Assembly: GCA_044229975.1 (NCBI GenBank)
Contig: JBGARZ010000007.1
Coordinates: 256,001 to 320,000 of the forward strand
Source: Polyangiales bacterium
Lineage (GTDB): Bacteria > Myxococcota_A > Polyangia > Polyangiales > Ga0077539
Length of the DNA: 64,000 bases
Direction of reading: 5' to 3'
Shown here: positions 8,967-49,463 of the stretch, one piece after another
Position numbering within the stretch: position 1 is the stretch's first letter
Layout: each line of letters starts with the position of its first letter
Notes under the pieces: generated by a model
What the model was told of the DNA's origin: nothing
Databases searched by the model: none
What the model saw: only the letters and a program-made list of their open reading frames with translations
Program-made: the position numbers and the translations under genes

Positions 8967-8997
8967 AGCGGACGGGGGCCGTGCGCGGAGAGAGAGA

Positions 8998-9134
8998 GGG
9001 CCGCCAGGGCGCAAGGGTCGCAAGGGAGACGCGTTTTCACGGCAAACAGCGATTTCGCGGTGTGGGCTCGTACGCCCCGAGCCCCTCGCCATCCATCTCT
9101 CTCATCCCTTGCGACCCTTGCGTCCTGGCGGCCC
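8998..9134. repeat. REP/REPIN-like inverted repeat (30-bp arms, 77-bp spacer)
   Basis: GGGCCGCCAGGGCGCAAGGGTCGCAAGGGA (8998-9027) matches the reverse complement of 9105-9134 at 29 of 30 positions. A small internal hairpin GGGCTCG..CGAGCCC lies in the spacer. Confidence 0.8.
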
Positions 9135-9190
9135 AATCTCTGTCGACCGCCGAGCCAGTCGCGCGTGCGTTCCGCGGTACAACCGACCCG

Positions 9191-22169: not shown

Positions 22170-24791
22170 TTACGGGTGAGCGGAGGGCGAGCGCCCGCCG
22201 ATTCGTTGGAAGTAGCGCCGGACGTACGCGCGCAGCGACGGCGGAACCCTCTGCGTCGTCATGCTGGCCTCCGGGTCTTCGTCGAGCGCGCCCGCGAGCG
22301 CGCCGTCGCCAGGGGCGTTGGGCAGCAGCGATCCCGGTGCGACGGGTGCCTCGCTCGTCGGCCCCGTGCCTGCGCCCTGCTGCTGCGCGACGCCCGGCAT
22401 CATCACGCCGCGCGCCCCCGGCGCGAGCTGCGGCGGGTGCCCCAACGGACCACCCGGGTCGACGTCGTGGCCCAGCGGACCGCTCGCGCCCGGTGTTCCG
22501 ACGCTGAGCCGATCGCCCGCGCCCGCGCCCCACGCCCGGCCCCCTTGCGGCTGCCGATTGGGGTCGCCTTCGCCCGATCCGGCGCCGCCGCTGCCGCCCG
22601 ATTCACCGTGCGCCTGCCCCGGTCCCTGCGCCGTCGCCTGGCTGTTGCCGTCGGCCTCGGTGTCACCCGTTCCGCGGTTGAATCGGCTCACCGCCTGCTG
22701 CCCGGTGCCGCCCATCGCGGCCGTGCGGTTGCCCTGCGTGACGCCCATCCCCGAGCTGTTGCCCTGGTTGTTGCCGATGTCTCCGCCGAGCGCGCCGTTG
22801 CGTCCCTGCGCGTCGCCCGTCCCCTGTCCCGGCGGCATGTTGCCCGGCGCCGACATCGACGAACCCATCCCCGGGTTGGTCGCCTGCATGCCCGCCGCGC
22901 GCCACGCGCCCTGCTGTCCCTGCCGCCCGCTCGGTGCGGGCTGTCCACCTGGTCGCGGCTGCCCCGGCATGCCCGACTCGTTGCGCCGCCCGAACTGCCC
23001 CGACTGCCCCGGCTGCCCCGGCTGTCCGGGTCGCCCCTGCTGCCCGGGCTGTCCCTGCTGCGCCGTCGCGCTCGGCTGCCCCGGCTGCTGCCCTTGCTGT
23101 CCCGGTTGTCCGGGCTGTGACTGCTGTCCCTGCTGACGGCCCTGTTGCCCCGGCGAGGGGCTCCCTTGCTGGGCGTTGTCGGGGCTCTCGCCGTTGCGTC
23201 CGGGGCTGCGCTCCTGACCGTTGCGAAGGGCCTCCTGCTCGCGGTTGAGGCTCGACTCGGTGCTGCTCCGCGACGTGCCATTGCGGTCGCCGTTGGCGCG
23301 GTCGGCCGACTGTTGCTGCTGGGCGTTTTGCGCGACCTGATCGTGCAGCGCGTCCATCGCGGCGCGCGCCCGACGCACGTCCTCGGGCTCGGCGTGGGCC
23401 TCACGCGACAGAGAGGCGCGAGCCCGCTCCAGGGCTTCGTTCATGCGCTGGCCGTCGTTGGCCGCGCGAGCCCTCGCGGCGTCTTGCAGGGCGCTCGCCG
23501 TCTCGGGCATCTGCTGCCCCAGCTCGCGGCTCGCCTGGTCCATCGCTTCGCCCACCTGCGCGTTCGGCACGCTCCGTCGCTCGTTCGCCTCCACCGACTG
23601 CAACGCCCGGTCGAGGTGCCCCACCGCGTCGTCGAGCGTGGGCGTCGCCGTCCGCTCGGTCGTCGCCGCCGCCGCTGCTGCGCGTCGAGGGTCCATCGCC
23701 TGCTGCGCCGCCTGTTCACGCTGCGCCGCCGCGTCGTGCGCCGCCTGCGCCTGCGCGATCTGCGACGTGAGCCCGGCGAGTCGTTGCTGCGCCGCGGCCT
23801 GCGCCGTCGCGTCGCCCGCGCGCTGCGCCGCTTCGAGTCGGGTCACCGCGTCGCGGAGCTGCGACTCGCTCGCCTGCTGGGCCGCGTCGGCCTGCGCGCG
23901 CGCCTGACGCGCTTCGGCGAGCGCCTGCCGTGCGGCGGCGACCTCGGGCGTGACGACGGCGGCCGGGTCGGTGGCGTTGGTGTTGGCAGTGGTGGGCGTC
24001 GGTTCGGCCACGCGGGCGCGCTCGATGGCGTTGGCGGCGCGCTCGATGGCCTGCGCGCGCTGCACGGCGGCGCGAGCGGCCTGTGCCGTGAGGGCGCGGT
24101 CGAGGGCGTTGATCTCGGCGTCGATGCGGCGGTTGGGCGAGTCGCGCAGCGCCTCGCGGAGGGCGGCCGCGCGGGCGGCGATGGCCTCGGGGGTCTCGGC
24201 GCCGTGGGGCGGTCGGGCGAAGGCCCGCTGGTGTCCGACGAAGCGGGCGAGGGCGTTGCCGACCTGCGGGACGGCGAGGCTCGCGAGCGCGATGAGCAGC
24301 GCGCCGACGACGTAGCGGGGGAAGCGCATGCCGGGACGCGGAGGAGTGGGCGTGGGGCCCGAGCGGTCGAGAAACTCCGACGCCTCCATGATCTGGAGCG
24401 CGTGGATGGGCGAGCGATCGTGGGTGGTGGAGAAGTGCAGGGCGGAGACGAAGCGGTCCTTGGCGTGGAGGAGCTGGTCGAGGCTGGAGGCCGCGCCAAA
24501 CGCGTTGACCCAGCGGGCTTTGGCCTCGCGGGCGCCGACGGCCACGGTGGCGACGGCGGCGGCGCCGAGGGCGAGGCGAGGGGAGAGGTGCGCGGTGCGC
24601 GCGACGGCGGCGACGGCGACCCCAACGGCGGTGCCCGACGCGACGCCGGAGAGGGCGGCGTCGAGGGCGATCCAAGTGTTGAGGCGGGCGCCGACCTGGT
24701 CGAGCGCGCGGGAGATGCTGGCGGGAAACGCTGGATCAGCCGGGGGGAGGGCGGTGGTCACGTCGGGAGGTGGGACGGGTGCGTCGGGCAT
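22170..24791 (-). CDS. Membrane-anchored coiled-coil protein with Gln/Gly/Pro-rich disordered tail (MoxR-operon accessory protein)
   Basis: About 3 TM, LD..L..KDRFVSAL motif, Ala/Gln coiled coil, QPG repeats, C-terminal VPPSLRAYVRRYF. Confidence 0.8.
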   Translation of the reverse strand: MPDAPVPPPDVTTALPPADPAFPASISRALDQVGARLNTWIALDAALSGVASGTAVGVAVAAVARTAHLSPRLALGAAAVATVAVGAREAKARWVNAFGAASSLDQLLHAKDRFVSALHFSTTHDRSPIHALQIMEASEFLDRSGPTPTPPRPGMRFPRYVVGALLIALASLAVPQVGNALARFVGHQRAFARPPHGAETPEAIAARAAALREALRDSPNRRIDAEINALDRALTAQAARAAVQRAQAIERAANAIERARVAEPTPTTANTNATDPAAVVTPEVAAARQALAEARQARAQADAAQQASESQLRDAVTRLEAAQRAGDATAQAAAQQRLAGLTSQIAQAQAAHDAAAQREQAAQQAMDPRRAAAAAATTERTATPTLDDAVGHLDRALQSVEANERRSVPNAQVGEAMDQASRELGQQMPETASALQDAARARAANDGQRMNEALERARASLSREAHAEPEDVRRARAAMDALHDQVAQNAQQQQSADRANGDRNGTSRSSTESSLNREQEALRNGQERSPGRNGESPDNAQQGSPSPGQQGRQQGQQSQPGQPGQQGQQPGQPSATAQQGQPGQQGRPGQPGQPGQSGQFGRRNESGMPGQPRPGGQPAPSGRQGQQGAWRAAGMQATNPGMGSSMSAPGNMPPGQGTGDAQGRNGALGGDIGNNQGNSSGMGVTQGNRTAAMGGTGQQAVSRFNRGTGDTEADGNSQATAQGPGQAHGESGGSGGAGSGEGDPNRQPQGGRAWGAGAGDRLSVGTPGASGPLGHDVDPGGPLGHPPQLAPGARGVMMPGVAQQQGAGTGPTSEAPVAPGSLLPNAPGDGALAGALDEDPEASMTTQRVPPSLRAYVRRYFQRIGGRSPSAHP

Positions 24792-31594: not shown

Positions 31595-33094
31595 TCAGCG
31601 CGGTCGACGGACGCCCAGCTTCTCCATGCGCGAGCGCAGCGTGCTCGGTTGCAGGCCCAGCCGCGCGGCCGCGCCCGACACCCCCTCCACCGTCCAGCCC
31701 GACTCCTCCAACACACGAACGATGTGCGACCGCTCGACCTCGCGCAGCGACGCGTCGTTCACCACCGGGTGCGCCGTCACCGGTGTCGGCGGCGCGGGAC
31801 GCGAGGTCAGCGGGGGAAGGTCGTCGCGCTCGATGCGCTCGCCGCGAGCGAGGATGGCGGCGCGCTCGATGACGTTCTGGAGCTCGCGAACGTTGCCCGG
31901 CCACTGGTACGCCTCGAGCATCGCGAGCGCCTCGGGCGACACGCCGCGCAGGGTCTTGTGCAGCCGCACGCTCGCCGACTCCACGAAGGCCGCGACGAGC
32001 AGCGCGACGTCGCCGGGGCGCGACCGCAGCGGCGGCGCCTCGATGGGAAACACCCCGAGGCGGTAGTAGAGGTCCGCGCGAAAACGCCCCGCGGCGACCT
32101 CCGTCGGAAGCGTCCGGTTGGTGGCCGCGATCACCCGCACGTCGACCTTCACCGCCTGCGCGCCGCCCACGCGCTCGAACTCCCGCTCCTGCAACACCCG
32201 CAAGAGCGCGGCCTGCGCGTCGGGCGGCAGCTCGCCCACCTCGTCGAGGAAGAGCGTTCCGCGGTCGGCCAGCTCGAAGCGGCCCGCCCGTCGCGCCGAG
32301 GCGCCCGTAAACGCGCCCTTCTCGTGCCCGAAGAGCTCGCTCTCCAGCAACGACGGAGCGATGGCCGCGCAGTTGATCCGCACCAGCGCGTGACCCCTCC
32401 GAGGGCTCGACTCGTGGACGATGCGGGCGAGGAGCTCCTTGCCGGTTCCGGTCTCGCCGGTGAGCAGAACCGTCGCGTCGGTGGGCGCCACCCGCCGCGC
32501 GGCCTCCACCGTCGCGCGCCACGCGGGGCTCTCGCCGACGACGGGCGTGCGCGGGTCGTGGGCCTCTTCGCGGAGGTAGAGGTTCTCGTCGCGCAGACGC
32601 GCGGCCATGGCATCGAGCTCGGTGAAGAGCCGGGCGTTCTTGATGGCCACCGCCGACTGATGGGCGAAGGCACCCACGCGCTCGAACTCCGCCGCCGACA
32701 GACCGCGCCGCGTGAAGATCGCGAGCACCCCGAGCAGCTCGCCACGAAACAGCAACGGGTAGCCCGCGAAGGCCCGCAGCCCGTGGGCGCGCACCCACGC
32801 CGGGTCGGCAACGCGCGGGTCGTTCTCCAGTCCGTCGAGCAGGGTGGGCTCGCGGCGCGAGGCGATGGCGCCGATCTTCAGCGACCCGAAGGCCACCTCG
32901 CGGTAGCGACCGTCGAGCCGCCGTGAGAGCCCCGAGCTCGCCCGCAGTTGGAGTCGGTCGGACTCGACCAGCCAGATGCGCGCGAGGGCCGCGTCGAACT
33001 CCGCCACCAGCCCGTCGGTGATTGCGCCGAGCAGCGCGCCCAGGTCGAGCACGCTGGTCATCTCAAGCGCGATGCGGGCGAGCGGGTCGGTCAT
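31595..33094 (-). CDS. GAF-domain sigma-54 enhancer-binding protein (FhlA/NorR-like architecture)
   Basis: GAF domain; [73 protein letters not shown] 33094. Confidence 0.93.
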
Positions 33095-33103
33095 CGGGTT
33101 TGG

Positions 33104-33161
33104 CCGCGGGGTCTCGTGGGAGCGCCACGACGACTCGCGGCGAGGCCACGATATACCGTGG
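33104..33161. promoter_or_regulatory. Three tandem palindromic operator/enhancer sites, consensus CCACGA-N4-TCGTGG, 21-bp period
   Basis: CCGCGG-GGTC-TCGTGG (33104), CCACGA-CGAC-TCGCGG (33125), CCACGA-TATA-CCGTGG (33146), in the divergent intergenic region of the bEBP gene. Confidence 0.75.
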
Positions 33162-33191
33162 GCTGCGACCGAAGAGGCTTGAATTGCCGTA

Positions 33192-33207
33192 TGGTCTGGT
33201 GATTGAA
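33192..33207 (+). promoter_or_regulatory. Candidate sigma-54 -24/-12 promoter
   Basis: TGGTCTGGTGATTGAA = GG-N10-GA with TT before the -12 element; deviates from canonical GC at -12. Confidence 0.45.
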
Positions 33208-33220
33208 GAAGGGTGCAGCC

Positions 33221-33595
33221 ATGGACACTGTAACGGACATCGTGGCCGCGGTGGAGAGCGCCGATGCGTCGCGCCGGAGGGCGTTGGAGGCGCGGCTGGA
33301 GGCGCTGGCGGAGACGCGTCGCGGGCTGACGCGGGTCGTCGCGCGGGCGCCGTGGTTGTTGATGAGCGCGCTGGGGTCGATTCCCGCGGGGGTCATCTGG
33401 GGAGCGGGCGCGGCGCTCGCGGTGCTGCTCACGTCGATCGCGGTGTCGGGCATGGCGATGTACCTCGCGTGGAGCCACGAGCAGGAGTACGCGGCGCAGC
33501 AGGACACGGTGCGCCAGGCCATCGCGGAGATCGGCAACCCGACCGTGCGCAAGAGCACGCCGTGGCGGGTGCAGGGCAAGGCGACGCAGTGGTGA
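33221..33595 (+). CDS. Small two-TM membrane protein
   Basis: ATG 33221; coiled-coil, two TM, coiled-coil layout; divergent from the bEBP. Confidence 0.75.
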   Translation: MDTVTDIVAAVESADASRRRALEARLEALAETRRGLTRVVARAPWLLMSALGSIPAGVIWGAGAALAVLLTSIAVSGMAMYLAWSHEQEYAAQQDTVRQAIAEIGNPTVRKSTPWRVQGKATQW

Positions 33596-33608
33596 GAGGC
33601 TACCGGGC

Positions 33609-33874
33609 GGGCCTCACCCCGCTGCGGGACCGGAGTTCGCGTGACCTCGTTGCGAGTGCGTGCAGTCGCTCACTCCGGGCTATTTCACGTGGTCACCTCG
33701 CGGCGCGAGGTTGCAGGATCTCCTGGCTGGCGATGAGCGAGTCGCTGGGTTGCTTGTTGAAACCAGTGCTGCAACCTCGCGCCGCGAGGTGACCACGTGA
33801 AATAGCCCGGAGTGAGCGACTGCACGCGCTCGCAACGAGGTCACGCGAACTCCGGTCCCAGCGGGGTGAGGCCC
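33609..33874. repeat. Long palindromic REPIN/MITE-like element, copy 1
   Basis: Arms 33609-33716 and 33769-33874 are near-perfect reverse complements around a 52-nt loop; homologous to 42263-42492. Confidence 0.92.
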
Positions 33875-34806
33875 TACCGCGCGACGAGCAGCGAGTGCGC
33901 GAAGGGCCACGCGGCGTCGACCCACTGCGCGGCGCAGGTGTAGCCCGACTCGTCGGCCCAGGCGCGCAGCTCGTCGGCGCGGAAGCGGTGGCTCGACTCG
34001 GTCCAGATGCTCTCGGCCTCAGCGAAGGAGATGGCCTCGCCCAGCACGCGCACCTCGCACGCCGTGCGGGCGACGAGGTGCATCTCGATGCGGCGGTCGT
34101 GGGCGTTCCAGCGGGCCTCGTGGGTGAAGTTGGCCAGCGGGAAGTCTGCGTCCCACTCGCGGTTGAGGCGCACCAGAAGGTTGCGGTCGAAGGCCGCCGT
34201 CACCCCGAGCGCGTCGTCGTAGGCGGGGAGCAGCAGCGACGGGTCCTTCTCCAGGTCGGTGGCCAGCAGCAACGCGTCACCGGGCGTGAGCGTGTCGCGG
34301 ACGTCGCGCAGGAAGCCCAGCGCCTCGCGGCGCGCGAAGTTGGACAGGTTGCTGCCGAGGAAGAGCACCAGGCGACGCGCACCGTCGACCCGGGCGGCAC
34401 GACGTAGACCCTCAACGTAGGTGGCCTCGACGGCGCGGACGTCGATGCCGGGGAGGTGTTCGAGCGCGCGCTGGCAGTCGCGCAGGGCGGTGGGGGAGAC
34501 GTCGACGGCGGTGAAGACCGTCGACGGCTGACGGGCGCACACGGCCGGGAGGAAGAGCGCCGCCTTGCGACCGCCGCCCGGACCAAGCTCGATGACATCG
34601 AGCGGACCGTTCAGTGAGCTAACGACATCGGGCGCGTGGGCTTCGATGAGACGGAGGTCGGCGCGGGTGAGCCCGTACTCGGGCAGCTCGGTGATGGCCT
34701 CGAAGAGCGCCGAGCCGAGGGCGTCGTAGAGCAGCGAGGTGGGGAGCGTCTTCGGGGTGGCGCGCAGCCCCTTCAGGATGGCGGCGCCGAGGGCAGGATC
34801 GGTCAC
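33874..34806 (-). CDS. egtD: L-histidine N-alpha-trimethyltransferase (hercynine synthase)
   Basis: GL...PKTLP..LYD..GS.LFE.IT.LPEY, IELGPG, FLGSNLSNF, AYDD..GVTAAF, RIEMHL, IWTESSHRF. GTG 34806 overlaps the egtB stop. Confidence 0.92.
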   Translation of the reverse strand: MTDPALGAAILKGLRATPKTLPTSLLYDALGSALFEAITELPEYGLTRADLRLIEAHAPDVVSSLNGPLDVIELGPGGGRKAALFLPAVCARQPSTVFTAVDVSPTALRDCQRALEHLPGIDVRAVEATYVEGLRRAARVDGARRLVLFLGSNLSNFARREALGFLRDVRDTLTPGDALLLATDLEKDPSLLLPAYDDALGVTAAFDRNLLVRLNREWDADFPLANFTHEARWNAHDRRIEMHLVARTACEVRVLGEAISFAEAESIWTESSHRFRADELRAWADESGYTCAAQWVDAAWPFAHSLLVAR

Positions 34807-36125
34807 GCGGGGCTCCCGTCGTCGACGCAGCGTAGCGTCGCGTACACGTGCGGATAGTGCGGCTGAAACCAGTTGCGAAACGAGCGGCGCAGGAAGGTGG
34901 TCGCGGTGCGCGGCGAAGCGCCCTTGAGCACGAAGTGGCGACCGTCGAAGAAGTCCGCCGAGTACCCGCGATAGAAGGGCAGCGGCGCGAAGCCCTCGAA
35001 GGGAGCGAAGGGCGTGCGGGTCCACTCCCAGCCGTTGCCGAGCATCTCGTCGACGCCGAGCGCGCTCCGGCCCGCGGGGTGCGTGCCGACGGGCGTCGGG
35101 TCGAAGCGCCCGAAGCCGAAGTTGCCGTGCACACCCGCGATGGGTGCTTCGGTGCCCCACGGGAAGGGTCGCTCCGAGCCGTCAGCGTTGGCGTACGCCG
35201 CGCGGTGCCACTGCGCCTCGGTGGGGAGCGACCATCCCTTCCAACGAGCATAGGCGCGAGCCTCGGCGTGGCTCACATACACCGGGCACGCGAGCGGCAA
35301 CGGAACCTCTCCCGCCATCGCCCGCCACCACCATCGACCATCACGACGCACCCAGAACGCCGGGTGTTGGACGCCCTCCCGATCGCGCCACGCGCGGTCG
35401 TCGTCGGACCAGAGCGCGTCGTGGCGATAGCCGCCGTCGTCGAGGAAGGCGAGCCACTCGGCGTTGGTCACCTTGTGCGAGCGAACGCGAAACGCCGGGA
35501 CGTCAATCGTGTGCTCGTCGTACTCGTTGTCCCATCCGCCGTGAGGGTCTTCGGTGCGCGAGCGACCGAGCGTGGCGCGACCGGCGGGGACGTCGATCCA
35601 GTGGGTCGTGGGTTGTGGCGTGTCGTGGAAGGCGGGCGCGGCCACACCCCGGAGAGAGCGCGGTGGGAGGTGGTGCAGGAGGTACGAGAGCGTCTCGGCG
35701 TGCATGAGCCGGTGCTCGACGGCGAGGCGCGCGGCCCAGGCGCCAGAGAGCCAGCCGGTGAGCGGCGCGGTGGCGATGACGGCGTCGACGTCGACGCGAC
35801 AGGCGGCGATCCACGCGCGGATGGCATGCGTGGCGGGCCAGTCGTTGGCGGTGTCGCGGGGGAGGTCGCCGTGGGTGGGGTCGATGCCGAAGGCGAAGAG
35901 GCGCTCGAACTCCTCGTGGCGTGAGGGCGCGTGGAGGCAGTCGCGCGCGAGGAGGTTGAAGTCGAAGGCGTCGAGGTGGCCGAGGTAGAAGACGAGCCGG
36001 TGACGCTCGGCGACGGGGCGTGAGAGCAGGGCCGCGGGGGTGAGCGCCTCGAAGAGCGCGTCGGTCTGGCGGCGGGCGGAGTGGAGGTCGCGGGCGAGCG
36101 CGTCGCGGATCGGGTCGCGGGTCAC
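34803..36125 (-). CDS. egtB: Non-heme iron sulfoxide synthase (DinB_2 + FGE-sulfatase), ergothioneine pathway
   Basis: FYLGH and EHRLMHAE iron ligands, WDNE, LPTEAQW, GNGWEWT, YRGYSADFFD, RRSFRNWF; coupled to egtD. Confidence 0.85.
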   Translation of the reverse strand: MTRDPIRDALARDLHSARRQTDALFEALTPAALLSRPVAERHRLVFYLGHLDAFDFNLLARDCLHAPSRHEEFERLFAFGIDPTHGDLPRDTANDWPATHAIRAWIAACRVDVDAVIATAPLTGWLSGAWAARLAVEHRLMHAETLSYLLHHLPPRSLRGVAAPAFHDTPQPTTHWIDVPAGRATLGRSRTEDPHGGWDNEYDEHTIDVPAFRVRSHKVTNAEWLAFLDDGGYRHDALWSDDDRAWRDREGVQHPAFWVRRDGRWWWRAMAGEVPLPLACPVYVSHAEARAYARWKGWSLPTEAQWHRAAYANADGSERPFPWGTEAPIAGVHGNFGFGRFDPTPVGTHPAGRSALGVDEMLGNGWEWTRTPFAPFEGFAPLPFYRGYSADFFDGRHFVLKGASPRTATTFLRRSFRNWFQPHYPHVYATLRCVDDGSPA

Positions 36126-36269
36126 AGGGCCATCCTTACGCCATCGGTGGGAGAGCGGTAACGGACTCCCACTGTTGCCCGGAGGGTTGAGCCGCCAGTG
36201 CCGATGGGAGAAGGGAGCGATGGACGGGCGGCGCGCGATGTTCTAGCGATGCGCGCACAGGAGCCAACG

Positions 36270-36998
36270 ATGGAATACGAGCTGTTCTACTGGCCGGGAA
36301 TCCAGGGGCGTGGGGAGTTCATCCGGCTGGCGTTCGAGGACGCGGGCGCGCCCTATGTGGACGTCGCGCGCGGCGCAGAGGGTGTGCAGGGCATCGTGCG
36401 GATGCTCAAGGGCGAAGGCTTCGACGGGCCGACGCCGTTTGCGCCGCCCATCCTGCGCCATGGTCCGCTGGTCATCGCGCAGGTGGCCAACATCCTCCAC
36501 TACGTCTCGTCGAAGGTGGGGCTCGCGCCCACGCACGAGTCGGAGCGCCACCTCGCGTTGCAGCTCCAGCTCACCGTCGCCGACCTCGTGGCGGAGGTTC
36601 ACGACACGCACCACCCGGTGAGCACGGCGCTCTACTACGAAGACCAGAAGGACGAGGCGCGGCGGCGCACGGCGAGCTTCGTGCTGGAGCGCCTGCCGAA
36701 GTATCTCGGGTACTTCGAGAAGGTGCTGACCCGCAACGGCGGAGACCATCTCGTGGGCGCCGACGTGAGCTACGTCGACCTGTCGATCTTCCAGGTGGTG
36801 GAGGGGCTGCGCTACGCGTTTCCGCGGGCGATGGTGGCGGTCGAGCCGAAGGCGCCGAAGGTCATCGCGCTGCACGACCGGGTGGCCGCGCGACCGGGCG
36901 TGGCGGCGTACGTGAAGTCACCGCGGCGCCTGGCCTTCAACGAGAACGGGATCTTCCGCCGCTACAAGGAGCTCGACCTCGCGCCCGGCGAGGAGTGA
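36270..36998 (+). CDS. Glutathione S-transferase family protein
   Basis: AGGAG RBS; YWPGIQGRGEFIRL, FAPPIL, AQVANIL, SYVDLSIFQ, GIFRRY. Confidence 0.9.
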   Translation: MEYELFYWPGIQGRGEFIRLAFEDAGAPYVDVARGAEGVQGIVRMLKGEGFDGPTPFAPPILRHGPLVIAQVANILHYVSSKVGLAPTHESERHLALQLQLTVADLVAEVHDTHHPVSTALYYEDQKDEARRRTASFVLERLPKYLGYFEKVLTRNGGDHLVGADVSYVDLSIFQVVEGLRYAFPRAMVAVEPKAPKVIALHDRVAARPGVAAYVKSPRRLAFNENGIFRRYKELDLAPGEE

Positions 36999-37002
36999 GA
37001 CG

Positions 37003-38475
37003 TCAGCGCCCTCCACGCAGCGGTCGCGGCACCAGCGCCCGCTCCAGCAGCGCGAAGAGAACCTGCGTGACGATCGCCAGCGCGGCGGCGGGCAACGCGC
37101 CCTCCATGATGGTCGGCGTCGAGTCCAGGCGGATGCCCCTCAGGATGGGCTGCCCGTAGCCTCCCGCGCCGACCATCGCGCCGAGCGTGGCGGTGCCGAC
37201 GTTGATGACGGCGGCGGTCTTCACGCCCGCGAGGATGGACGGCAGCGCGAGCGGCAGCTCCACCAGGCGCAGCCGCGCCCACGGTGGCAGACCGAGAGCC
37301 TCGGCGCTCTCGACGAGCGACGCGGGGATGCCGCGCAGGCCCGCGACGGTGTTCTGCACGATGGGGAGCAGCGAGTAGAGGAAGAGGGCCGCGACGGCGG
37401 GCGCCGCGCCGATGCCCAGCACCGGGATGAGCAGCACCAGCAGCGCCAACGACGGAACCGTCTGCAACACCCCCGCGACCCCGAGCACGGCGGCACCGAG
37501 GCGAGGGCGCTTCGCCGCGGCGACGCCCAACGGGACGGCGCACAACACCGCAGCGAACAGAGAGGCGAGAACGAGCGCGAGGTGCTCGCGGGTGCGGTCG
37601 GCGATGCGCGAGAGGCGGCCCTCGGCGGCGACGACGGTGCGCAGCCCGCGGTGCTCCTCCAGCCACGCGGCGGCGACTGCGCCTTCGGTGCGATGGCGTC
37701 GCTTCACCTGATCGTTGAGGTCGATCATCGCGGGGGCGTCGAGGCTGCCGCCGAGCGACTCCAGCGCCCGCGCGCACGACGGCGACCGACGCGCGAGGTC
37801 GGAGCGGTAGAGCAGCACCGCGGAGTACTCGGGGAAGTAACCGCGGTCGTCCGCGAGCACGCGCAGGTGGTGCCACGCGATCTCGGCGTCGGTGGTGTAG
37901 AGGTCGGTCACCTGGATGGCGCCCGACGCGAGGGCCCGGTAGGCGAGGTCGTGGTCCATGCCGCGCACCTCGTGTTGCGGGAGCTCGTAGCGGGCGCGCA
38001 GTCCGGGCCACCCGTCGGCGCGGTCGAGAAACTCGTGTGAGAGGCCCAGCACGAGGTCGGGCTGCCCGCGCAGGTCGCTGAGGGTGCGCAGTCCGCGCGC
38101 GGTCGCGAGCGACTCAGGGACGCCCAGCGCGTAGGTGTTGTTGAACCCGAGCGGGGCCGTCATGGAGACGCCCTCACGGGCGAGGGCGCGGCGCAGCCCC
38201 GTGAGGTCGCGCGCGTCGACGCCGCGGAGGAGCTCGGCGGCGAGCGTGCCGGTGTACTCGGGGTAGACGTCGATCTCGCCGGCGCGGAGGGCGCGCCAGA
38301 GGACGGCTGTTCCACCGAGCTGGCGGCGGTGCTCGGTGGTGGAGCCGGTGGCGGCGCAGGCGCGCGTGGCGACCTCGCCGAGGATGACGCCTTCGGTGAA
38401 GTTCTTGGAGCCGATGCGTACCGCGCGAGGGGCGCACCCGAGGGCCACGAAGAGGAGAAGGAGGAGGGGCCTCAC
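37003..38475 (-). CDS. Fused substrate-binding + permease subunit of a quaternary-amine (OpuBC/OsmF-like) ABC importer
   Basis: Lipobox-like LGC, IGSKNFTE, YPEYTGT, NNTYAL, YTTD, FPEY; permease QTVPSLALL, EAA-like ESAEALG, GAGGYG. Confidence 0.9.
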   Translation of the reverse strand: MRPLLLLLFVALGCAPRAVRIGSKNFTEGVILGEVATRACAATGSTTEHRRQLGGTAVLWRALRAGEIDVYPEYTGTLAAELLRGVDARDLTGLRRALAREGVSMTAPLGFNNTYALGVPESLATARGLRTLSDLRGQPDLVLGLSHEFLDRADGWPGLRARYELPQHEVRGMDHDLAYRALASGAIQVTDLYTTDAEIAWHHLRVLADDRGYFPEYSAVLLYRSDLARRSPSCARALESLGGSLDAPAMIDLNDQVKRRHRTEGAVAAAWLEEHRGLRTVVAAEGRLSRIADRTREHLALVLASLFAAVLCAVPLGVAAAKRPRLGAAVLGVAGVLQTVPSLALLVLLIPVLGIGAAPAVAALFLYSLLPIVQNTVAGLRGIPASLVESAEALGLPPWARLRLVELPLALPSILAGVKTAAVINVGTATLGAMVGAGGYGQPILRGIRLDSTPTIMEGALPAAALAIVTQVLFALLERALVPRPLRGGR

Positions 38476-39230
38476 GACGTCACCCCCGCGTCACTCTGCG
38501 CGCGGAAGAAGTCGCGCACGAAGGGGTCGGCCGGCGTGGACTCCAGCTCCGCGAAGGTCCCCTGCTGCACCACGCGGCCGTCGCGCAGCAGCACGATGGT
38601 GTCCCCGAAATGCCGCGCTTCGCGGAGATCGTGCGTGACCAGTACGACCGTCTTCGCCAGCGAGCGGAACGCGTCGCGCAGGTCGCGCTGCAACTCGGCG
38701 CGCACCATCGGGTCGAGCGCCCCGAGCGGTTCGTCGAGGAGCAGCACCTCCGGGTCGAGGACCAACGCCCGCATCAACGCCACACGCTGCCGCTGACCAC
38801 CCGAGAGCGCGTCGGGGTGGCGGTCGAGCAGCGCCGCGGGGAGGCGCGCCAGCGAGGCGAGCTCGGTCACGCGGGCGTCGAGGTCGGCGGTCGGTCGGCG
38901 CAGCCAGCGCGGGAGGAGCGTGACGTTGTCGCGGGCCGTGAGGTGGGGAAAGAGCCCGCCCTCCTGGATGACGTAACCGATGCGTCGACGGAGGGCCTCG
39001 ACGTTGGCGGGGGAGGGGGTCTCGCCGAGCACACGGAGGGCTCCGGCGGTCGGGGCGATGAGGCCGTTGATGAGGCGCAGCAGGGTGCTCTTGCCGCAGC
39101 CGCTCGGTCCGAGGAGCACCGTGGTGCGACCGGCGGGGATGTCGAGGTCGATGGGGCCGAGGGCGATCGCGTCGCCGTAGCGGCGGGTCACGCCGAGCAG
39201 GGACACCGCGGCTGGCGGGGCAGTGGGCAT
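38472..39230 (-). CDS. ABC ATP-binding protein (OpuA/OsmV-like)
   Basis: GPSGCGKST, LRRRIGYVIQEGGLFPH, LSGGQRQR, LLDEPLGALDP, VTHD. Confidence 0.93.
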   Translation of the reverse strand: MPTAPPAAVSLLGVTRRYGDAIALGPIDLDIPAGRTTVLLGPSGCGKSTLLRLINGLIAPTAGALRVLGETPSPANVEALRRRIGYVIQEGGLFPHLTARDNVTLLPRWLRRPTADLDARVTELASLARLPAALLDRHPDALSGGQRQRVALMRALVLDPEVLLLDEPLGALDPMVRAELQRDLRDAFRSLAKTVVLVTHDLREARHFGDTIVLLRDGRVVQQGTFAELESTPADPFVRDFFRAQSDAGVTS

Positions 39231-39298
39231 CGGGGCGCGCGATGGTCGCACGCATCCCGTCGCGGGGGTCGCGCGGCTCGCGTAGGCTCCGAGGCGCC

Positions 39299-39838
39299 AT
39301 GGGATTGTTGACGATCATCGGGCTGTTGGTGGTGGGCTTCAGCGTCGGCGTGTCCAGCGGGCTGCTGGGCATCGGCGGCGGGGTGCTGGTGATCCCGGCG
39401 CTGGTGATGGGCTTCGGCTTCTCGCAGCAGCGGGCCGTCGGGACGAGCCTCGCGATGCTGCTGCCGCCCATCGGCATCTTCGCGGTGCTGCGCTACGCGC
39501 GCGGCGGCCACGTCGACTGGGCCGCGGCGATGATCATGGCGGCGGCCTTCGCGGGCGGCGCCTTCGTGGGCGCGTGGGCCGTCACGCGGGGTTGGGTCTC
39601 CGAGCGCGCGCTGCGGACGGTGTTCGCGGCGTTTCTGCTCTACGTGGTAGGCAACCTGCTGTTTCGCGGGGAGAAGCGCGTCTGGTCGGCGCTGGTGACG
39701 CTGGGCCTCGGCGCGGCCTACGGGCTCGCGTACCTCGGTCTGCGCGCCGCGGGTCGGAAGTGGGAGCGCGAGACCAAGCTGTCGGCGATCTACGCCAAGC
39801 AGATCGAGGCGCCGGTGCCGATGGAGTACGAGATCTAG
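39299..39838 (+). CDS. Half-size TauE/SafE (sulfite exporter/TSUP) family protein
   Basis: SGLLGIGGGVLVIPAL, QQRAVGTSL, G.FVGA. Confidence 0.85.
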   Translation: MGLLTIIGLLVVGFSVGVSSGLLGIGGGVLVIPALVMGFGFSQQRAVGTSLAMLLPPIGIFAVLRYARGGHVDWAAAMIMAAAFAGGAFVGAWAVTRGWVSERALRTVFAAFLLYVVGNLLFRGEKRVWSALVTLGLGAAYGLAYLGLRAAGRKWERETKLSAIYAKQIEAPVPMEYEI

Positions 39839-40083
39839 CGACGGTCGCGCCCGAGGCGCTGGATGGCGTCCCTGATCGCCTCGTGGCGGGTGAGCGTCGG
39901 GGCGCGCTTCAGCTCGTGGCTGACGAGGCGCTCGGCCATCGCGTGATCGCCGCGCACCAGCCGCATGAGCCGCAGGAAGTCGTCGTCTTCTTTCGCTCTC
40001 GGCGACCCGAAGAAGACCCACCAGGCCACGACCGCGCCGGCGATCAGCAGCGCGATGAGCGTCAGCGTCGGGTTGTGTCTCAT
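39835..40083 (-). CDS. Small single-TM protein
   Basis: ATG 40083; N-terminal TM then L..LVRGD..MAERL...E..RAP...AI.RL.RDR helical motif. Confidence 0.65.
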   Translation of the reverse strand: MRHNPTLTLIALLIAGAVVAWWVFFGSPRAKEDDDFLRLMRLVRGDHAMAERLVSHELKRAPTLTRHEAIRDAIQRLGRDRR

Positions 40084-40195
40084 GACGCGAGCATCCGTCG
40101 TCGGTGGCGCCGCGCGCAATCCCCGATGCTGCACGTCTCGACCTGCGCCTGATGCATCGCCCGATGGGGCGGGCTATGGCTGTCGTGGCGCAACG

Positions 40196-40639
40196 ATGGC
40201 GACCCCGCGCGAGACGCAGCTCCCCCTGTTGACCGTCGACCCGCGCGAGCGCGGCCGCGGGTTGCTCGCCGTCTGTCGGTTGGTGGTCCGGTCGTTGGAG
40301 CGGGCGCGGCGGCTCTCCGACGACCGCCCGGAGCTGGCGCTCGCCACGCTCGAACGCTGGCTGGACCGGGACGACGGCCCCGCGGAGCTGCACGAGGCGA
40401 TGGAGCTGATGGTGCAGGCGACCTTCGACGATCGCGAGGCGGTGGCCGCGACGCGGTGCGTGCTGTGGGCGATGCGGGTCAACGTGATCCACCCGGCGCG
40501 CGCGAGCGACGTGGCGACGCGCGTGATCGACGGCGCAGTGGAGGTGCTGGTGGCGTTGGGCGAAGAGCCGGAGGCCGCGGCGGCGCAGGTCGACCTCGCG
40601 TACCGCGCGGGCGCGGACGGTCAGGCGTTGGACCAGTAG
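40196..40639 (+). CDS. Hypothetical helical protein
   Basis: ATG 40196; high GC3; convergent overlap with the GST gene. Confidence 0.6.
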   Translation: MATPRETQLPLLTVDPRERGRGLLAVCRLVVRSLERARRLSDDRPELALATLERWLDRDDGPAELHEAMELMVQATFDDREAVAATRCVLWAMRVNVIHPARASDVATRVIDGAVEVLVALGEEPEAAAAQVDLAYRAGADGQALDQ

Positions 40640-41340
40640 CGGGCGCGGCCCCGCTCGACGTAGGCCACGAGGTCGGGGAGCGCCTTCAGGCGGGCACGCA
40701 CCGCGTTGTCGAAGGGAGCATCGTGCAGCGAGTACAGGAAGGACCACACCGTCGCATCGACGGTGCGCGGCGCGTCGCCCAGCACCCATGGCCCCGACCC
40801 GATGAGCTCGTTGAGCGACTCGACGAGCTCGATGGCCAGCGCCTCGACCTCGGCGACGGAGTGACGCCCGGTCCCTTGACCCTTGAGGGACTTCTTCACC
40901 TGCCCGCGGACGAAGTTGCTGATGGTTCCGGCCAGGAAGGCGGGGGGACCGCCCGGTCCCGCGAAGAGCTGCTTGAGCGCCGGGGCCATCACCGTCCACC
41001 CGCGGTCGTCCTGCCAGCGCAGAAACAGCGTGGTGAAGTACATGTGCTCTTCGACCATCGACTGGATGGCGCGGCCGAGCGCGCGGTCGCGAGGGGAGAG
41101 CCCCGCGTCGAGGTCGCCGTGCTTCTTCGACAGGTGCCGGATGATGAAGGTCGTGTCGCCGAGCAGCGTTCCGTCGTCGTCGACGATGTAGGGGATCTTC
41201 CCCTTCGGCGCCTTGCGCGGGTCACCGGGCGCGAAGCGGTACTCGACGCCCGCCATGCGGCACCAGGTCGCGAGCTTCACCACGAAGGGGCTCAGGTCGA
41301 TCATGCCGAGGGCCGCGTTGAACTGGTGGATGGTGATCAT
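40621..41340 (-). CDS. Metaxin/FAX-like glutathione S-transferase
   Basis: SPFVVKL, APKGKIPYI, GDT, MVEEH.YF, GTGRHS, GDAP..VDA. Confidence 0.88.
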   Translation of the reverse strand: MITIHQFNAALGMIDLSPFVVKLATWCRMAGVEYRFAPGDPRKAPKGKIPYIVDDDGTLLGDTTFIIRHLSKKHGDLDAGLSPRDRALGRAIQSMVEEHMYFTTLFLRWQDDRGWTVMAPALKQLFAGPGGPPAFLAGTISNFVRGQVKKSLKGQGTGRHSVAEVEALAIELVESLNELIGSGPWVLGDAPRTVDATVWSFLYSLHDAPFDNAVRARLKALPDLVAYVERGRARYWSNA

Positions 41341-41415
41341 GGGGCGGACGGTCTCCCGCCCAACGCGGGTGACGCAAGATCCCTCTCTTCGGCGGTGTAG
41401 AGTCGCCGCCCGAAG

Positions 41416-42279
41416 ATGCCCCTCGAAGGTCGCGGCGAACACTACTCCCGTCTGCGCGGCGCCATCGAGTGGACGCTGGCCCACCTCTACCGCGGCGGCT
41501 GGTCGGCCCGTGTGGTCCGTCGGCTCGGGCTCCAGTCGCCGGTGCGCGTCGTCCGCCACCGTGTCGCCGTCGCGCGCTGGCCCGCCGGCCTCCGCCCGCT
41601 GCGCATCGCCTTCGCGTCCGACCTGCACGCGGGGCCGACGACGCACCCGTCGCTCCTCGACGAGGTCGTGCGCGCCATCGAGGACGCTTCTCCCGACGTG
41701 GTGCTGCTGGGCGGCGACTACGTGTTCATGGATGCCCGCGAGGTCGGCGCGCTCACCACGCGGCTCGCTCGACTCCGCGCGACGCCGCAGCGCTTCTGCG
41801 TGATGGGCAACCACGACCTCTGGGCCAACGACGCGCGCATCGCCGACGATCTCTCGGGCGCCGGGTTCGCGCTGCTGCGCAACGGCTCCGTCCATCTCGC
41901 GCCGCCCTTCGACCACGTCTCCATCTGCGGCCTCGACGAGCCCTGGACGGGCTCTCCCGACCCTCGCGCCACCTTCGCCGACGCCCGCGACGTTCGCGTG
42001 CTGCTGGTGCACGCGCCGTCGGGTCTGCTGCTCACGGGCGATGAGCGCTTCGACCTCGCGCTCTGCGGCCACACCCACGGCGGCCACATCGCGTTGCCCG
42101 GTGGTGTTCCCATCGTGTCGGTGGGGCCGCTCAGTCGACGGTACCCGCACGGTGAGCACCGCCTGCCCGACGGCGCGACGCTCATCGTGAGCCGCGGCGT
42201 CGGCGCGACCGAGAGCCCGCTGCGGCTCTTCGCCGACCCCGACGTGCGCGTCGTCGAACTGGGGCCGGAGTTCGCGTGA
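41416..42279 (+). CDS. Metallophosphoesterase (YkuE/YaeI-like)
   Basis: SDLH, GGDY, GNHD, LLVHAP, CGHTHGG, VSRGVG. Last codons lie inside the palindromic element. Confidence 0.9.
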   Translation: MPLEGRGEHYSRLRGAIEWTLAHLYRGGWSARVVRRLGLQSPVRVVRHRVAVARWPAGLRPLRIAFASDLHAGPTTHPSLLDEVVRAIEDASPDVVLLGGDYVFMDAREVGALTTRLARLRATPQRFCVMGNHDLWANDARIADDLSGAGFALLRNGSVHLAPPFDHVSICGLDEPWTGSPDPRATFADARDVRVLLVHAPSGLLLTGDERFDLALCGHTHGGHIALPGGVPIVSVGPLSRRYPHGEHRLPDGATLIVSRGVGATESPLRLFADPDVRVVELGPEFA

Positions 42280-42492
42280 CCCCAATGAGTCGAAGTGCAG
42301 TCGCTCACTCCGGGCTATTTCACGTGGTCACCTCGCTGCGCGAGGTTGCAGGAAGCCTCCGCCGACAATGAACGAGTCGATGGGTTGTTCGTTGAAACCA
42401 GTGCTGCAACCTCGCGCAGCGAGGTGACCACGTGAAATAGCCCGGAGTGAGCGACTGCACTTCGACTCATTGGGGTCACGCAAACTCCGGCC
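42263..42492. repeat. Long palindromic REPIN/MITE-like element, copy 2
   Basis: Arms 42263-42351 and 42404-42492 (89 bp, one mismatch) around a 52-nt loop; same orientation as copy 1. Confidence 0.92.
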
Positions 42493-42497
42493 ACAGC

Positions 42498-44411
42498 TCA
42501 CCGCTCCTCCACCGGCTCCGCCTGTCGCGTCGTCGGCGCCTCCGTTCGTACGCACCCGTACGATCCCAGCGCCGCCCACGGTGTCGCCGCGAGAAAGTCC
42601 GTCCGTTGCAGCCGTTGCGCCGCCTGTCGCAGCGCCGCTCGCAGCCTGCACCGGGCTCGTACGTCCATCGCCTCGGGCGGCTGAAACCCCACCGCCCCAC
42701 GCAGCCACGGGTCGACCAGCTCGCGCCCCTCGGTCACCCGGTACGCCACCACCGCGAGCGCCTCCACCGCCTCCACCGTCGGGTCGCCCAGCGCCGCGAT
42801 CACCTCCTGCGCGCGGTGCCCGTTGGCCGCCGCCGTGACCCGCGCCATCGCCTCGGCGCGCTCCCTGGCCGGGACATCCCTCGCGGGAACATAGTCCCCC
42901 AGCCGCCACCACTCGACCTGCGCCGCGAGCCGCGCGCCCGACGACGCCGTGTTGAGCTCCGCCGAGCGCCACGGGTTGTTGAGCTCGTCGAGGCCCACCC
43001 CGACACCCGGGAGGCGCGCGATGATGGGCCGCAGCGAGTGGTCGGTCGATGGCAGCCCTCGCATCGTCTCGGCCACCGACGCCCAGGTGTAGCCCTGCGG
43101 CCACGGCTGCCCCGCCGCGAAGCGCAGGTCGAGCGTGTCCACCGCGAGCGTCGCGCCCGCCGCCGCGAGCTGCCGGACGTTGCTGCGCAGGAGCGATGGC
43201 CGGCGCCACCACATCGGTCGCCAGGGTGGTCCGTAGGTGGTCGCCCGCAGCGCGATGCGGTGCTCGATCACCAGGCGGGCGAGGTCGCGCGACACGTCGT
43301 CGGGGCAGCCCACCGGGCCGCACGCAGCCACCGCGTCGCGCACGCAGCGCACCGTGTCGCGCAGGAGGAAGGGCAGCCGTGGGTCGGCCAGCGCGCCGCG
43401 CAGGATCGCCCCGTCGCGCGCGAGGCAGGAGAGGGTCACTCCGTCGGGTCGCGCCCGCGCGGTCTCCTCGCGAACGGCCTGCGAGAGCGGGTGTTCGTCG
43501 ATGCGCGTGCGGAGGTTGCAGCGGTCATCGGGCCACGGGTCGCGCCCGGTGCGACGGAGAAACTCCGCCGCGAGCGCGCAGTCCCCGGTGGCTTCGACGG
43601 CGTGGGCGATGCGGTCCATGGCTGGGGCGTCGATCCATGGGATGGGTCGTTCGGTGGGCCGTCCCGCGCGCAGGATGCGTTGCGCGCGACGATGATGGAG
43701 CGGGCTCACGTTGGCGAGCGCGAGGTGCGCGCGTTGGTACGGGGTCCAACGAACCTCCCAGCGGAGGCCGTGCGCCGTCATGGCGACGGGGCGCGCGACG
43801 GGCGCGATGCGACCGAGGGCGCGGTGTGCGGCCGCGACGACGCCCGCGAACAGCGCGACGACGACGACCGCGAGGGCGATGGACCAGCGGGCGTACGGGA
43901 CGTCTCGCACGACGCCCGGATCGAGCGCGGCCATGGGGATGGCGTCGCCGTCGGCGCGGAGCGACCAGTGACCTACGTCGGCGCGGGTCGCGTCGTCGGT
44001 CGTGGGCTCGTCCTCGTGGCAGTGGAGCACACCGCGCGCGCGCACCCGGACGCCGCGGGCGAGGGAGCGGCGGTCGGACGGTGCCCACGGTTCGACGCTG
44101 CCGAGGAGCAGTCGTCGCGGTCCGTCGAGGGTGACGCGTCGGCCGCCGACCATGATCCAGGCGGGGCCGTCGGGGGCTTCGTCGCGACCGTAGTGGCCGT
44201 CGAGGGTGACGACCGACCCGACGCCCGCGAAGGGGTCGCGCGCAGGATCACCGAGCGCCCGGAGCGCGACGTGAAACCGGGCGCGAAACCGGGCCCGCGA
44301 CGCGAGGTACATCGCCGCGAGGGAGACGCCGACGAGCAGGCCCAGCGCGATGAAGGTCAGCGGCGGTCCGACGCGCAACGCTAGAGCGACCAGGGCCCGC
44401 ACGCGCGGCAA
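42498..44411 (-). CDS. Hypothetical membrane protein
   Basis: Longest GC3-consistent ORF; two hydrophobic segments; start uncertain (TTG). Confidence 0.6.
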   Translation of the reverse strand: MPRVRALVALALRVGPPLTFIALGLLVGVSLAAMYLASRARFRARFHVALRALGDPARDPFAGVGSVVTLDGHYGRDEAPDGPAWIMVGGRRVTLDGPRRLLLGSVEPWAPSDRRSLARGVRVRARGVLHCHEDEPTTDDATRADVGHWSLRADGDAIPMAALDPGVVRDVPYARWSIALAVVVVALFAGVVAAAHRALGRIAPVARPVAMTAHGLRWEVRWTPYQRAHLALANVSPLHHRRAQRILRAGRPTERPIPWIDAPAMDRIAHAVEATGDCALAAEFLRRTGRDPWPDDRCNLRTRIDEHPLSQAVREETARARPDGVTLSCLARDGAILRGALADPRLPFLLRDTVRCVRDAVAACGPVGCPDDVSRDLARLVIEHRIALRATTYGPPWRPMWWRRPSLLRSNVRQLAAAGATLAVDTLDLRFAAGQPWPQGYTWASVAETMRGLPSTDHSLRPIIARLPGVGVGLDELNNPWRSAELNTASSGARLAAQVEWWRLGDYVPARDVPARERAEAMARVTAAANGHRAQEVIAALGDPTVEAVEALAVVAYRVTEGRELVDPWLRGAVGFQPPEAMDVRARCRLRAALRQAAQRLQRTDFLAATPWAALGSYGCVRTEAPTTRQAEPVEER

Positions 44412-48860: not shown

Positions 48861-49463
48861 TCAGAAGACGGTGCAGAACCCGCCGCGGCAGGGGCCGCGG
48901 TTGCACGCTCCGCCCCCGCAGCAGAGCTGGAAGTCACCGCCGCACGGCGTGCAGAACGCCACACCCGGGTTCACGCAGGTCAGGCCCGACCGACAGGACA
49001 TCGCCCCGGCGCAGCAGCGCTGCATGTTGCTGCCACACGTCGGGTCCAGCGGAACGTCCACGGTCCCGCTGTCGACCACCACCGGGACATCGGGCACGCC
49101 CACGTCGGGGCTCCCCACGTCGGGCACGCCGACATCCAGCACGCCCGTGTCGGGCACGCCCGCGTCGGGCACGCCCACGTCCATCACGCCGGCATCCATC
49201 GGCCCGGTGTCGACCACACCCGCATCGCGCCCGGCGTCGACCCCGAGGTCTACCGTCGGTGGTCGATCGATCGCCGTCACCACGTCGACGGCGATGCCCA
49301 GGTCGACGGGCGTCGGGCGATCGATGGGCTCCGCCACGTCCACGGCCGCGCCCACGTCCGTCGCGACGTCGTTGGTCGGCGGAACGATCACCTGCGGGTT
49401 CTCCAGGGCGCACGCCCCGAGCCCCGACAGCACCAGCACCAGAAGTGTCCGCGACCCGGCCAT
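48861..49463 (-). CDS. Lipoprotein with PDxG repeats and two Cys-rich modules
   Basis: LGACALENP; 15-bp (V)PDxG repeats; CGSNMQRCC...CGGDFQLCC. Confidence 0.82.
   Translation of the reverse strand: MAGSRTLLVLVLSGLGACALENPQVIVPPTNDVATDVGAAVDVAEPIDRPTPVDLGIAVDVVTAIDRPPTVDLGVDAGRDAGVVDTGPMDAGVMDVGVPDAGVPDTGVLDVGVPDVGSPDVGVPDVPVVVDSGTVDVPLDPTCGSNMQRCCAGAMSCRSGLTCVNPGVAFCTPCGGDFQLCCGGGACNRGPCRGGFCTVF

Follow-up and report, generated by a model that had tools for sequence, protein, structure and literature searches.

What are the two long palindromes in a 64,000-nucleotide (nt) stretch of a Polyangiales bacterium genome (contig JBGARZ010000007.1; the whole stretch is hereafter the window), and how have their arms stayed so nearly symmetric? 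Our analysis indicates that they are, with high probability, gene-less inverted doublets of the ends that enclose a Y1/HUH transposase gene, likely spread in trans by that enzyme. In this they resemble REPINs, the hairpin-forming doublets of repetitive extragenic palindromic sequences (REPs). Since the arms are shared with the gene for this enzyme (P0002) elsewhere in the genome, the palindromes are likely selfish REP/REPIN-type passengers of it. Coordinates of the two palindromes and of their neighbour genes are positions within the window, and the host genome is designated G000.

Two palindromes and their copies across the genome

The features of the two copies are as follows.

33609..33874, no strand: copy 1, which is family-A element e24; the span takes in mirrored outer extensions of about 21 nt per side
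33630..33716, plus strand: left core arm of copy 1 (87 nt), with hairpin 1 at 33630-33678 (35-nt variable loop), guide-like ATAG on the minus strand at 33680-33683 and hairpin 2 at 33695-33711
33717..33768, no strand: central loop of copy 1 (52 nt), non-palindromic and homologous to the loops of other copies
33769..33855, minus strand: right core arm of copy 1, with hairpin 2 at 33774-33790, ATAG on the plus strand at 33802-33805 and hairpin 1 at 33807-33855
42265..42351, plus strand: left core arm of copy 2 (element e25), with hairpin 1 at 42265-42313, the guide-like site on the minus strand at 42315-42318 and hairpin 2 at 42330-42346
42352..42403, no strand: central loop of copy 2 (52 nt)
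42404..42490, minus strand: right core arm of copy 2, with hairpin 2 at 42409-42425, ATAG at 42437-42440 and hairpin 1 at 42442-42490

Both palindromes had been reported by a sequence-only reading of the window, and they were recovered at the same places with their arms and loops. The arms of copy 1 (33626-33716 and 33769-33859) were 99% complementary and those of copy 2 (42256-42351 and 42404-42499) 97%, around a loop of 52 nt in either case, and the predicted fold of copy 1 (-274 kcal/mol, z = -25) was equalled by none of 200 shuffles. Within the 87-nt core arms there was one mismatch inside each copy and 10 differences between the two copies. Nine of these fell in arm positions 18-30, and the remaining one, at position 73, is the lone G/T difference that had been noticed earlier. 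The loops had 39 of 52 bases in common, in agreement with the homology proposed for them. An internal block had also been described as unrelated between the copies and mirrored within each; rather than being unrelated, it aligned over 80 arms, where it behaves as a rapidly evolving loop that falls into two main subfamilies; the sole arm mismatch of copy 1 lies in it.

A profile search of the 10.0-Mb assembly returned 80 strong arm matches, all in inverted pairs, which make up 40 elements (family A) on 15 of the 39 contigs; two further weak matches represent a related family. The window palindromes are thus copies of a non-autonomous, multi-copy hairpin element, as had been proposed, and a lone pair derived from one local duplication is excluded. 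The loop was short in 38 of the 40 elements. Thirty-nine pairs counted as gene-less and one pair, C34:47318-47915, enclosed a transposase gene of the Y1/HUH type. A profile of the loops gave no match inside this latter element, and we rejected the idea that the loop is a remnant of the transposase gene. When relatives were searched at the DNA level, family A left only short traces, in 2 of 40.

Read outward on the guide strand, an arm consists of hairpin 2 (7 bp, 3-nt loop), a 16-nt spacer ending in ATAG-C, and hairpin 1 (7 bp), whose 35-nt loop contains the variable block. The stems and the guide-like site were almost invariant over the 80 arms and the loops varied; within hairpin 2, a T-A pair was changed to C-G in 14 of the 80. 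In REPs, according to the accessible text of PMC8266576, cutting depends on a tetranucleotide at the foot of the stem, of which the last two bases pick the site. The corresponding position is ATAG in family A, and only its AG is general across phyla (NNAG).

A Y1/HUH transposase enclosed by the same arms

The sequence-only reading had suggested looking for an HUH transposase flanked by the same core, and the C34 pair encloses one. Its 146-amino-acid (aa) open reading frame (ORF) is preceded by a purine-rich, ribosome-binding-like stretch and ends with its stop codon inside the right arm. The genome holds four PF01797 matches, and two genes besides P0002 share the subclass-1.2 motif.

C34:47422-47862: P0002, Y1/HUH IS200-like transposase (146 aa), assigned by PF01797 and motifs
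C23:54387-55138 (L013) and C23:67403-68127 (L012): further subclass-1.2-like genes, each within arms of its own, with 29 and 14 arm pairs

P0002 matched PF01797 (E 1.9e-21) and the IS200/IS605 transposase model NF033573 (59.1 bits against a cut-off of 55); with the model for RAYTs (REP-associated tyrosine transposases), NF047646, it reached 30 bits, below the cut-off of 80. Its best match among solved structures was a transposase (E 8e-4). The motifs DHVH, WQ and YVREQPLHH are those of TnpA subclass 1.2, which is characterized by DH[IV]H, WQ and Y-x3-Q-x2-HH, a length of about 148 aa (146 in P0002), low copy number and low intragenomic identity. Judged by its sequence, the protein is probably assignable to this subclass by all three motifs, length, copy number and identity; the published assignment uses clustering or a subclass profile that takes in a 30-aa C-terminal domain.

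The other two genes lie in arms of 104 and 135 nt, and the 29 pairs count in a shorter subfamily as well as one pair probably joined in error. The arms of one of these families (B) are distantly related to those of A, and the arms of the other (C) are unrelated to A. G000 has one enzyme gene per arm family, and the three proteins are 36-57% identical to one another. Between the arms of one family-C pair (C2:174727-175925, L261) lie 942 nt that contain an unrelated ORF, at most 291 aa long, a possible case of cargo capture. The fourth Y1 gene (C26:70450-72492, L015) has another motif and is accompanied on both sides by arrays of a 53-nt tandem palindromic repeat in inverted order.

Arms and enzymes in related genomes

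The association between enzyme and arms extends well beyond the host. We examined the best 80 of 506 candidate relatives of P0002, the closest named of which come from Polyangiales, Deltaproteobacteria and Myxococcaceae assemblies, and the signature Y-x3-Q-x2-HH was present in 78 of the 80, across phyla. Where both flanks were available, the gene lay within an inverted repeat 40 nt or longer at 60 of 75 loci, compared with 0 of 65 controls taken farther out. A structural scan found the layout hairpin-CT-spacer-hairpin at 54 of 76 loci versus 1 of 76 shuffled ones, a pattern that was picked after viewing the data and with which an unfiltered dinucleotide count agrees; both strands of both window copies fit it as well. 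Within the host family, 25 of 31 genomes had the enzyme, and of the 29 loci for which both flanks were available, 26 had an inverted repeat 40 nt or longer.

A tree of 34 proteins put the 10 loci with A/B-type arms all into one enzyme clade of 12 rows (support 90/90) and the five loci with C-type arms all into another (support 100/100), and 19 rows had neither arm type. Arm type thus follows enzyme clade, as an association, since kin share labels. Two other assemblies add to this pattern. In G002, the whole arm-gene-arm unit occupied four loci (C43, C122, C165 and C23; L097, L101, L104 and L106), three of which were compared and were 93-98% identical; there were 69 arm matches in this genome. 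This suggests that the unit itself has been mobile in the G002 lineage. In G041, a gene together with dispersed doublets was found again among the 40 matches scored.

Empty sites and a candidate mechanism

A comparison of orthologous loci for empty sites, which the sequence-only reading had proposed, revealed such sites for copy 2 and for a third element, e21. A contig from run X4, from a strain about 91% identical, joins 42266 to 42540 with 70 letters between them and is without copy 2; contigs of the same run enter copy 1 from both sides. At the locus L132, orthologous to the copy-2 site (88-93% identical), 36 nt stand in place of 233 in the window. The third case is G005:C399, with 21 nt where e21 and its flanks occupy 295; in G005, seven elements were searched via six queries, and only e21 had both flanks on one contig, synteny being lost or the region unassembled for the others. 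Judged from these alignments, insertion seems to replace some target DNA; with relatives this far removed, the ends are placed only approximately.

By analogy with TnpA-REP and IS608, as treated in the accessible parts of PMC8266576, P0002 would bind a folded arm on single-stranded DNA. The enzyme's tyrosine would then cut at a site selected through the guide, and the doublet would be strand-transferred, with a short stretch of target replaced rather than a clean insertion made. Arms may be swapped between copies, after which template switching in host replication would copy one arm onto the other, a route to symmetry whose chances we consider about evenly balanced.

Several points weigh against the reading of the palindromes as doublets spread in trans by P0002. 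The ATAG is guide-like by analogy, and the copies have ragged ends with no fixed boundary. The outer flanks of family-A copies contain no conserved CT site, and a cut site at that position was rejected. The related genomes are non-independent samples. Furthermore, no arm was identical between different copies (0/3120) and the closest loops were 4 bases apart (the nearest loops differed by a median of 10 bases). Family A thus bears no sign of copying in recent times, and it may be dormant. Finally, private alleles were mirrored in 18 cases and one-sided in 18, a balance compatible with copying at insertion as well as with later correction.

Symmetry of the arms

Arms differed little within a copy (mean 1.9, median 1; 14 of 40 copies had identical arms and 26 had mismatches) compared with a mean of 10.9 (median 11) between copies, and for 67 of the 80 arms the nearest arm was its own partner. 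The gene-enclosing pair had 6 differences. Within-copy distances of 13-27 in family C are not interpretable, as the arm trimming is out of register. The sequence-only reading had attributed symmetry to arm-to-arm copying. The arms do evolve in concert; an element-specific copying step is one possible cause, and generic template switching is a published route for homogenising inverted repeats in the available text of PMC5941160. Symmetric doublets with compensatory changes are likewise known in Pseudomonas, as described in accessible sections of PMC3116915 and 10.1101/119743. Loop and arm distances were uncorrelated among 33 copies (Mantel r 0.05, p 0.30), and two elements, e12 and e14, carry arms of two different subfamilies, which fits arm exchange between copies followed by homogenisation. 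Host template switching combined with arm exchange is the likeliest route to symmetry, with about an even chance of being correct.

The strongest competitor holds that symmetry is made anew at each transposition, one arm plus loop being excised by the enzyme and the second arm synthesised by fold-back from the first; we regard it as a tentative possibility, behind the former. It would suit the identical arms of 14 copies, given that no arm is common to two copies, and the mirrored outer extensions of at least 10 nt, which occurred in 20 of 40 copies versus 13% of mismatched pairs. For Pseudomonas REPINs, moreover, an asymmetric excision intermediate needing re-symmetrisation has been proposed (PMC3116915, accessible part). 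However, many of the outer extensions are common to several copies, which makes them look like eroding element ends, not copied target, and the long extension at L104 is partly common to another G002 copy. The hybrids e12 and e14 also persist with 12 differences. An inverted duplication of target DNA at insertion was not supported, the extensions often being common to copies.

Under the preferred route of template switching and arm exchange, the long variable loops keep a record of both exchange and symmetrisation, and strain comparison can address how REPINs become and stay symmetric.

Placement and remaining alternatives

Family-A copies are biased towards the 3' ends of genes, as counted against our own codon-usage gene calls (7816 genes). 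Convergent genes flanked 28 of the 40 versus a background of 18% (p 1e-12), and divergent genes flanked not a single copy (p 3e-4); the bias was weaker in families B and C. Upstream stop codons were within 55 nt outside the core in 62 of 68 cases, with distances peaking at 11, 21 and 31 nt (p 2.5e-4 versus a smooth null, post hoc). Family B did not reproduce this 10-nt phasing (27 distances, p 0.17), and family C offered only four distances. The bias towards gene ends likely reflects where insertions are tolerated.

The convergent placement and the closeness of upstream stops are also what recommends a second alternative, namely that the palindromes are RNA structures selected by the host (terminators, 3' stabilisers or an Acido-Lenti-1-like small RNA) and spread by recombination, the transposase being incidental. 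We consider this unlikely. No U-tract follows the arms, some orthologous sites are without the element, and arm type tracks enzyme clade. Conservation is moreover concentrated in the arm-internal hairpins and the guide-like site, which a full RNA duplex would bury. The sequence-only reading had envisaged a bidirectional terminator, a function that finds no support at the arms: a scan of 33500-34000 gave one weak site, inside the loop. A secondary effect of the palindromes on transcripts is possible.

Acido-Lenti-1 (RF01687) deserves separate mention, being treated as a likely RNA or as an element without known function in the accessible parts of PMC2864571 and of two 2026 preprints. Like the arms studied here, it has a hairpin, a GGCTA-type (CT) junction, a short spacer and a second hairpin. 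Its model passed the threshold in 5 of 40 subclass-1.2 loci scanned, directly beside the gene in four of the five. Unlike it, hairpin 1 of the window arms has a 35-nt loop, and the model has no match there: RF01687 was absent at E up to 5 in window positions 33000-43000 and at the three G000 enzyme loci, and an Rfam scan of the same 33000-43000 interval returned generic hairpin matches only, all below threshold. The finding points to a DNA-repeat reading of the layout of this orphan 'RNA'.

A classical miniature inverted-repeat transposable element, whose terminal inverted repeats a DDE transposase would recognise and mobilise, is very improbable. One family-A copy does contain a DDE transposase in its loop (C23:501408-502961, L260), but this is a 1554-nt IS66 (PF03050) with its own ends and an 8-bp target duplication, and was therefore inserted into the loop; in addition, the palindrome ends are ragged and the conserved part is internal. 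An assembly fold-back artefact (or a single local duplication), which near-perfect arms might bring to mind, has a negligible probability given 40 copies on 15 contigs, 26 of them with arm mismatches, homologous non-palindromic loops, public short-read contigs that enter copy 1 from both sides and in one case span arm-loop-arm, and a like organisation in G002 and G041.

The repeat families are also unevenly spread over the assembly. The three largest contigs (C32, C38 and C11; 2.9 Mb, 29% of the assembly) held none of the 40 family-A copies and 2 of the 83 pairs of all three families, and element-free contigs totalled 5.06 Mb versus 2.30 Mb expected (0 of 20000 simulations). Since dnaA lies on the element-rich C23, a bias of the elements toward the origin side is possible.

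Relation to known systems

A system of this kind is already described, in the form of symmetric REP doublets and terminal inverted repeat (TIR) dimers with Y1 transposases (accessible parts of PMC3116915 and PMC3733652), and the biology is that of REP/REPIN-type repeats rather than of a new class. Within that kind, the palindromes are, with high probability, a variant made of long REPIN-like doublets that have two hairpins per arm and a class-1 Y1 enzyme as their cognate partner.

As with REPINs and bacterial interspersed mosaic elements associated with RAYTs of TnpA-REP groups 2 and 3 (accessible text of PMC3116915 and PMC8266576), the doublets are extragenic, inverted and hairpin-forming and show compensatory changes; each repeat family has one enzyme, a tetranucleotide stands at the stem foot, and the doublets are related to the repeats flanking the enzyme. 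In contrast, the arms here are 87 nt with two hairpins, compared with 20-65 nt, and the guide-like tetranucleotide is ATAG. The enzyme is of class 1 (Y-x3-Q-x2-HH), not class 2 (Y-x3-NP), and below the RAYT cut-off, and in G002 the whole gene-plus-arms unit is present at four loci. TIRtrons with their TIRYT enzymes (Di Nocera 2013, PMC3733652, accessible part) likewise consist of a Y1 gene flanked by long inverted repeats, 'double palindromic' in some cases, and have dimers elsewhere. However, their enzyme is of class 2 and their repeats carry GGGGWSAS, which by eye matched only in the variable loop of some family-A copies and not in the gene-flanking arms; the sections of Quentin 2018 at hand (PMC6006769) place 26 TIRYTs in subclasses 2.1, 2.2 and 2.5. 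Some overlap between TIRtron repeats and family A is possible. With IS200/IS605 elements of subclass 1.1 (IS608, ISDra2) the shared feature is the HUH/Y1 core. Those have unlike left and right ends, often tnpB and many near-identical copies, whereas family A has two inverted copies of one end, no tnpB or second gene inside and one gene copy.

For subclass 1.2 itself, the entry in the accessible part of Quentin 2018 (PMC6006769) is 'REP: no', and typical end structures are said to be absent. In the present data, long structured arms are the norm, as are dispersed doublets; the arm finding contradicts the published description of the subclass, not the protein assignment. In its available text, Bertels 2017 (PMC5581495) reports for 'IS200 Group 3' abundant flanking 16-mers and no duplication, and this group is possibly subclass 1.2. 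In the portion available, Bertels and Rainey 2022 (10.1101/2021.07.10.451892) state REPINs only for RAYT groups 2 and 3. In the literature covered, subscription papers excepted, we found no tie of subclass 1.2 to long arms. With these arms, a widespread Y1 subclass to which no substrate of this kind had been ascribed gains a defined candidate, and a genome with three enzyme-arm pairs is a ready test of cross-specificity.

More speculatively, subclass-1.2 elements could be a living intermediate between IS200 and the domesticated RAYTs. They would then be symmetric transposons of single-stranded DNA that carry the same end twice, move whole (as the four G002 units would have done) and also drive long gene-less doublets. 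With every move the second arm would be made afresh by fold-back copying, and in family A the core would be set in 10-nt phase with upstream stops. We think this full scenario rather doubtful.

Neighbour genes and other features of the window

Both window copies have convergent neighbours, as the sequence-only reading had stated.

33221..33595, plus strand: host gene, a small ORF; left member of the convergent pair around copy 1
33874..34806, minus strand: host gene for an egtD-like histidine methyltransferase (TIGR03438 just above cut-off); the other member of that pair
41416..42279, plus strand: metallophosphoesterase, 287 aa, with its terminal residues E-F-A-stop supplied by copy 2
42498..44378, minus strand: convergent neighbour of copy 2, host gene, without Pfam match

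The remaining positional claims of that reading held too. Copy 1 abuts the egtD stop, in that its mirrored end overlaps the first base of this stop at 33874. Copy 2 provides the last codons of the phosphoesterase, the first 15 nt of its left core arm encoding the end of the protein and the TGA stop. Orthologues at the empty sites end in LGPVVTAA* (L132) and LGPA* (G005), and copy 2 is a case of a repeat element rewriting the C-terminus of a host protein. Two further predicted genes, at e16 (C23:335950) and e34 (C39:50257), likewise stop inside the element core.

Elsewhere in the window, a separate 40-nt inverted repeat (8988-9144, 90% complementary, 77-nt spacer) is unrelated to family A, and tandem repeats of coding type occur at 55637-56167 (period 96 nt), 55187-55524 (18 nt), 22985-23144 (9 nt) and 49090-49209 (15 nt).

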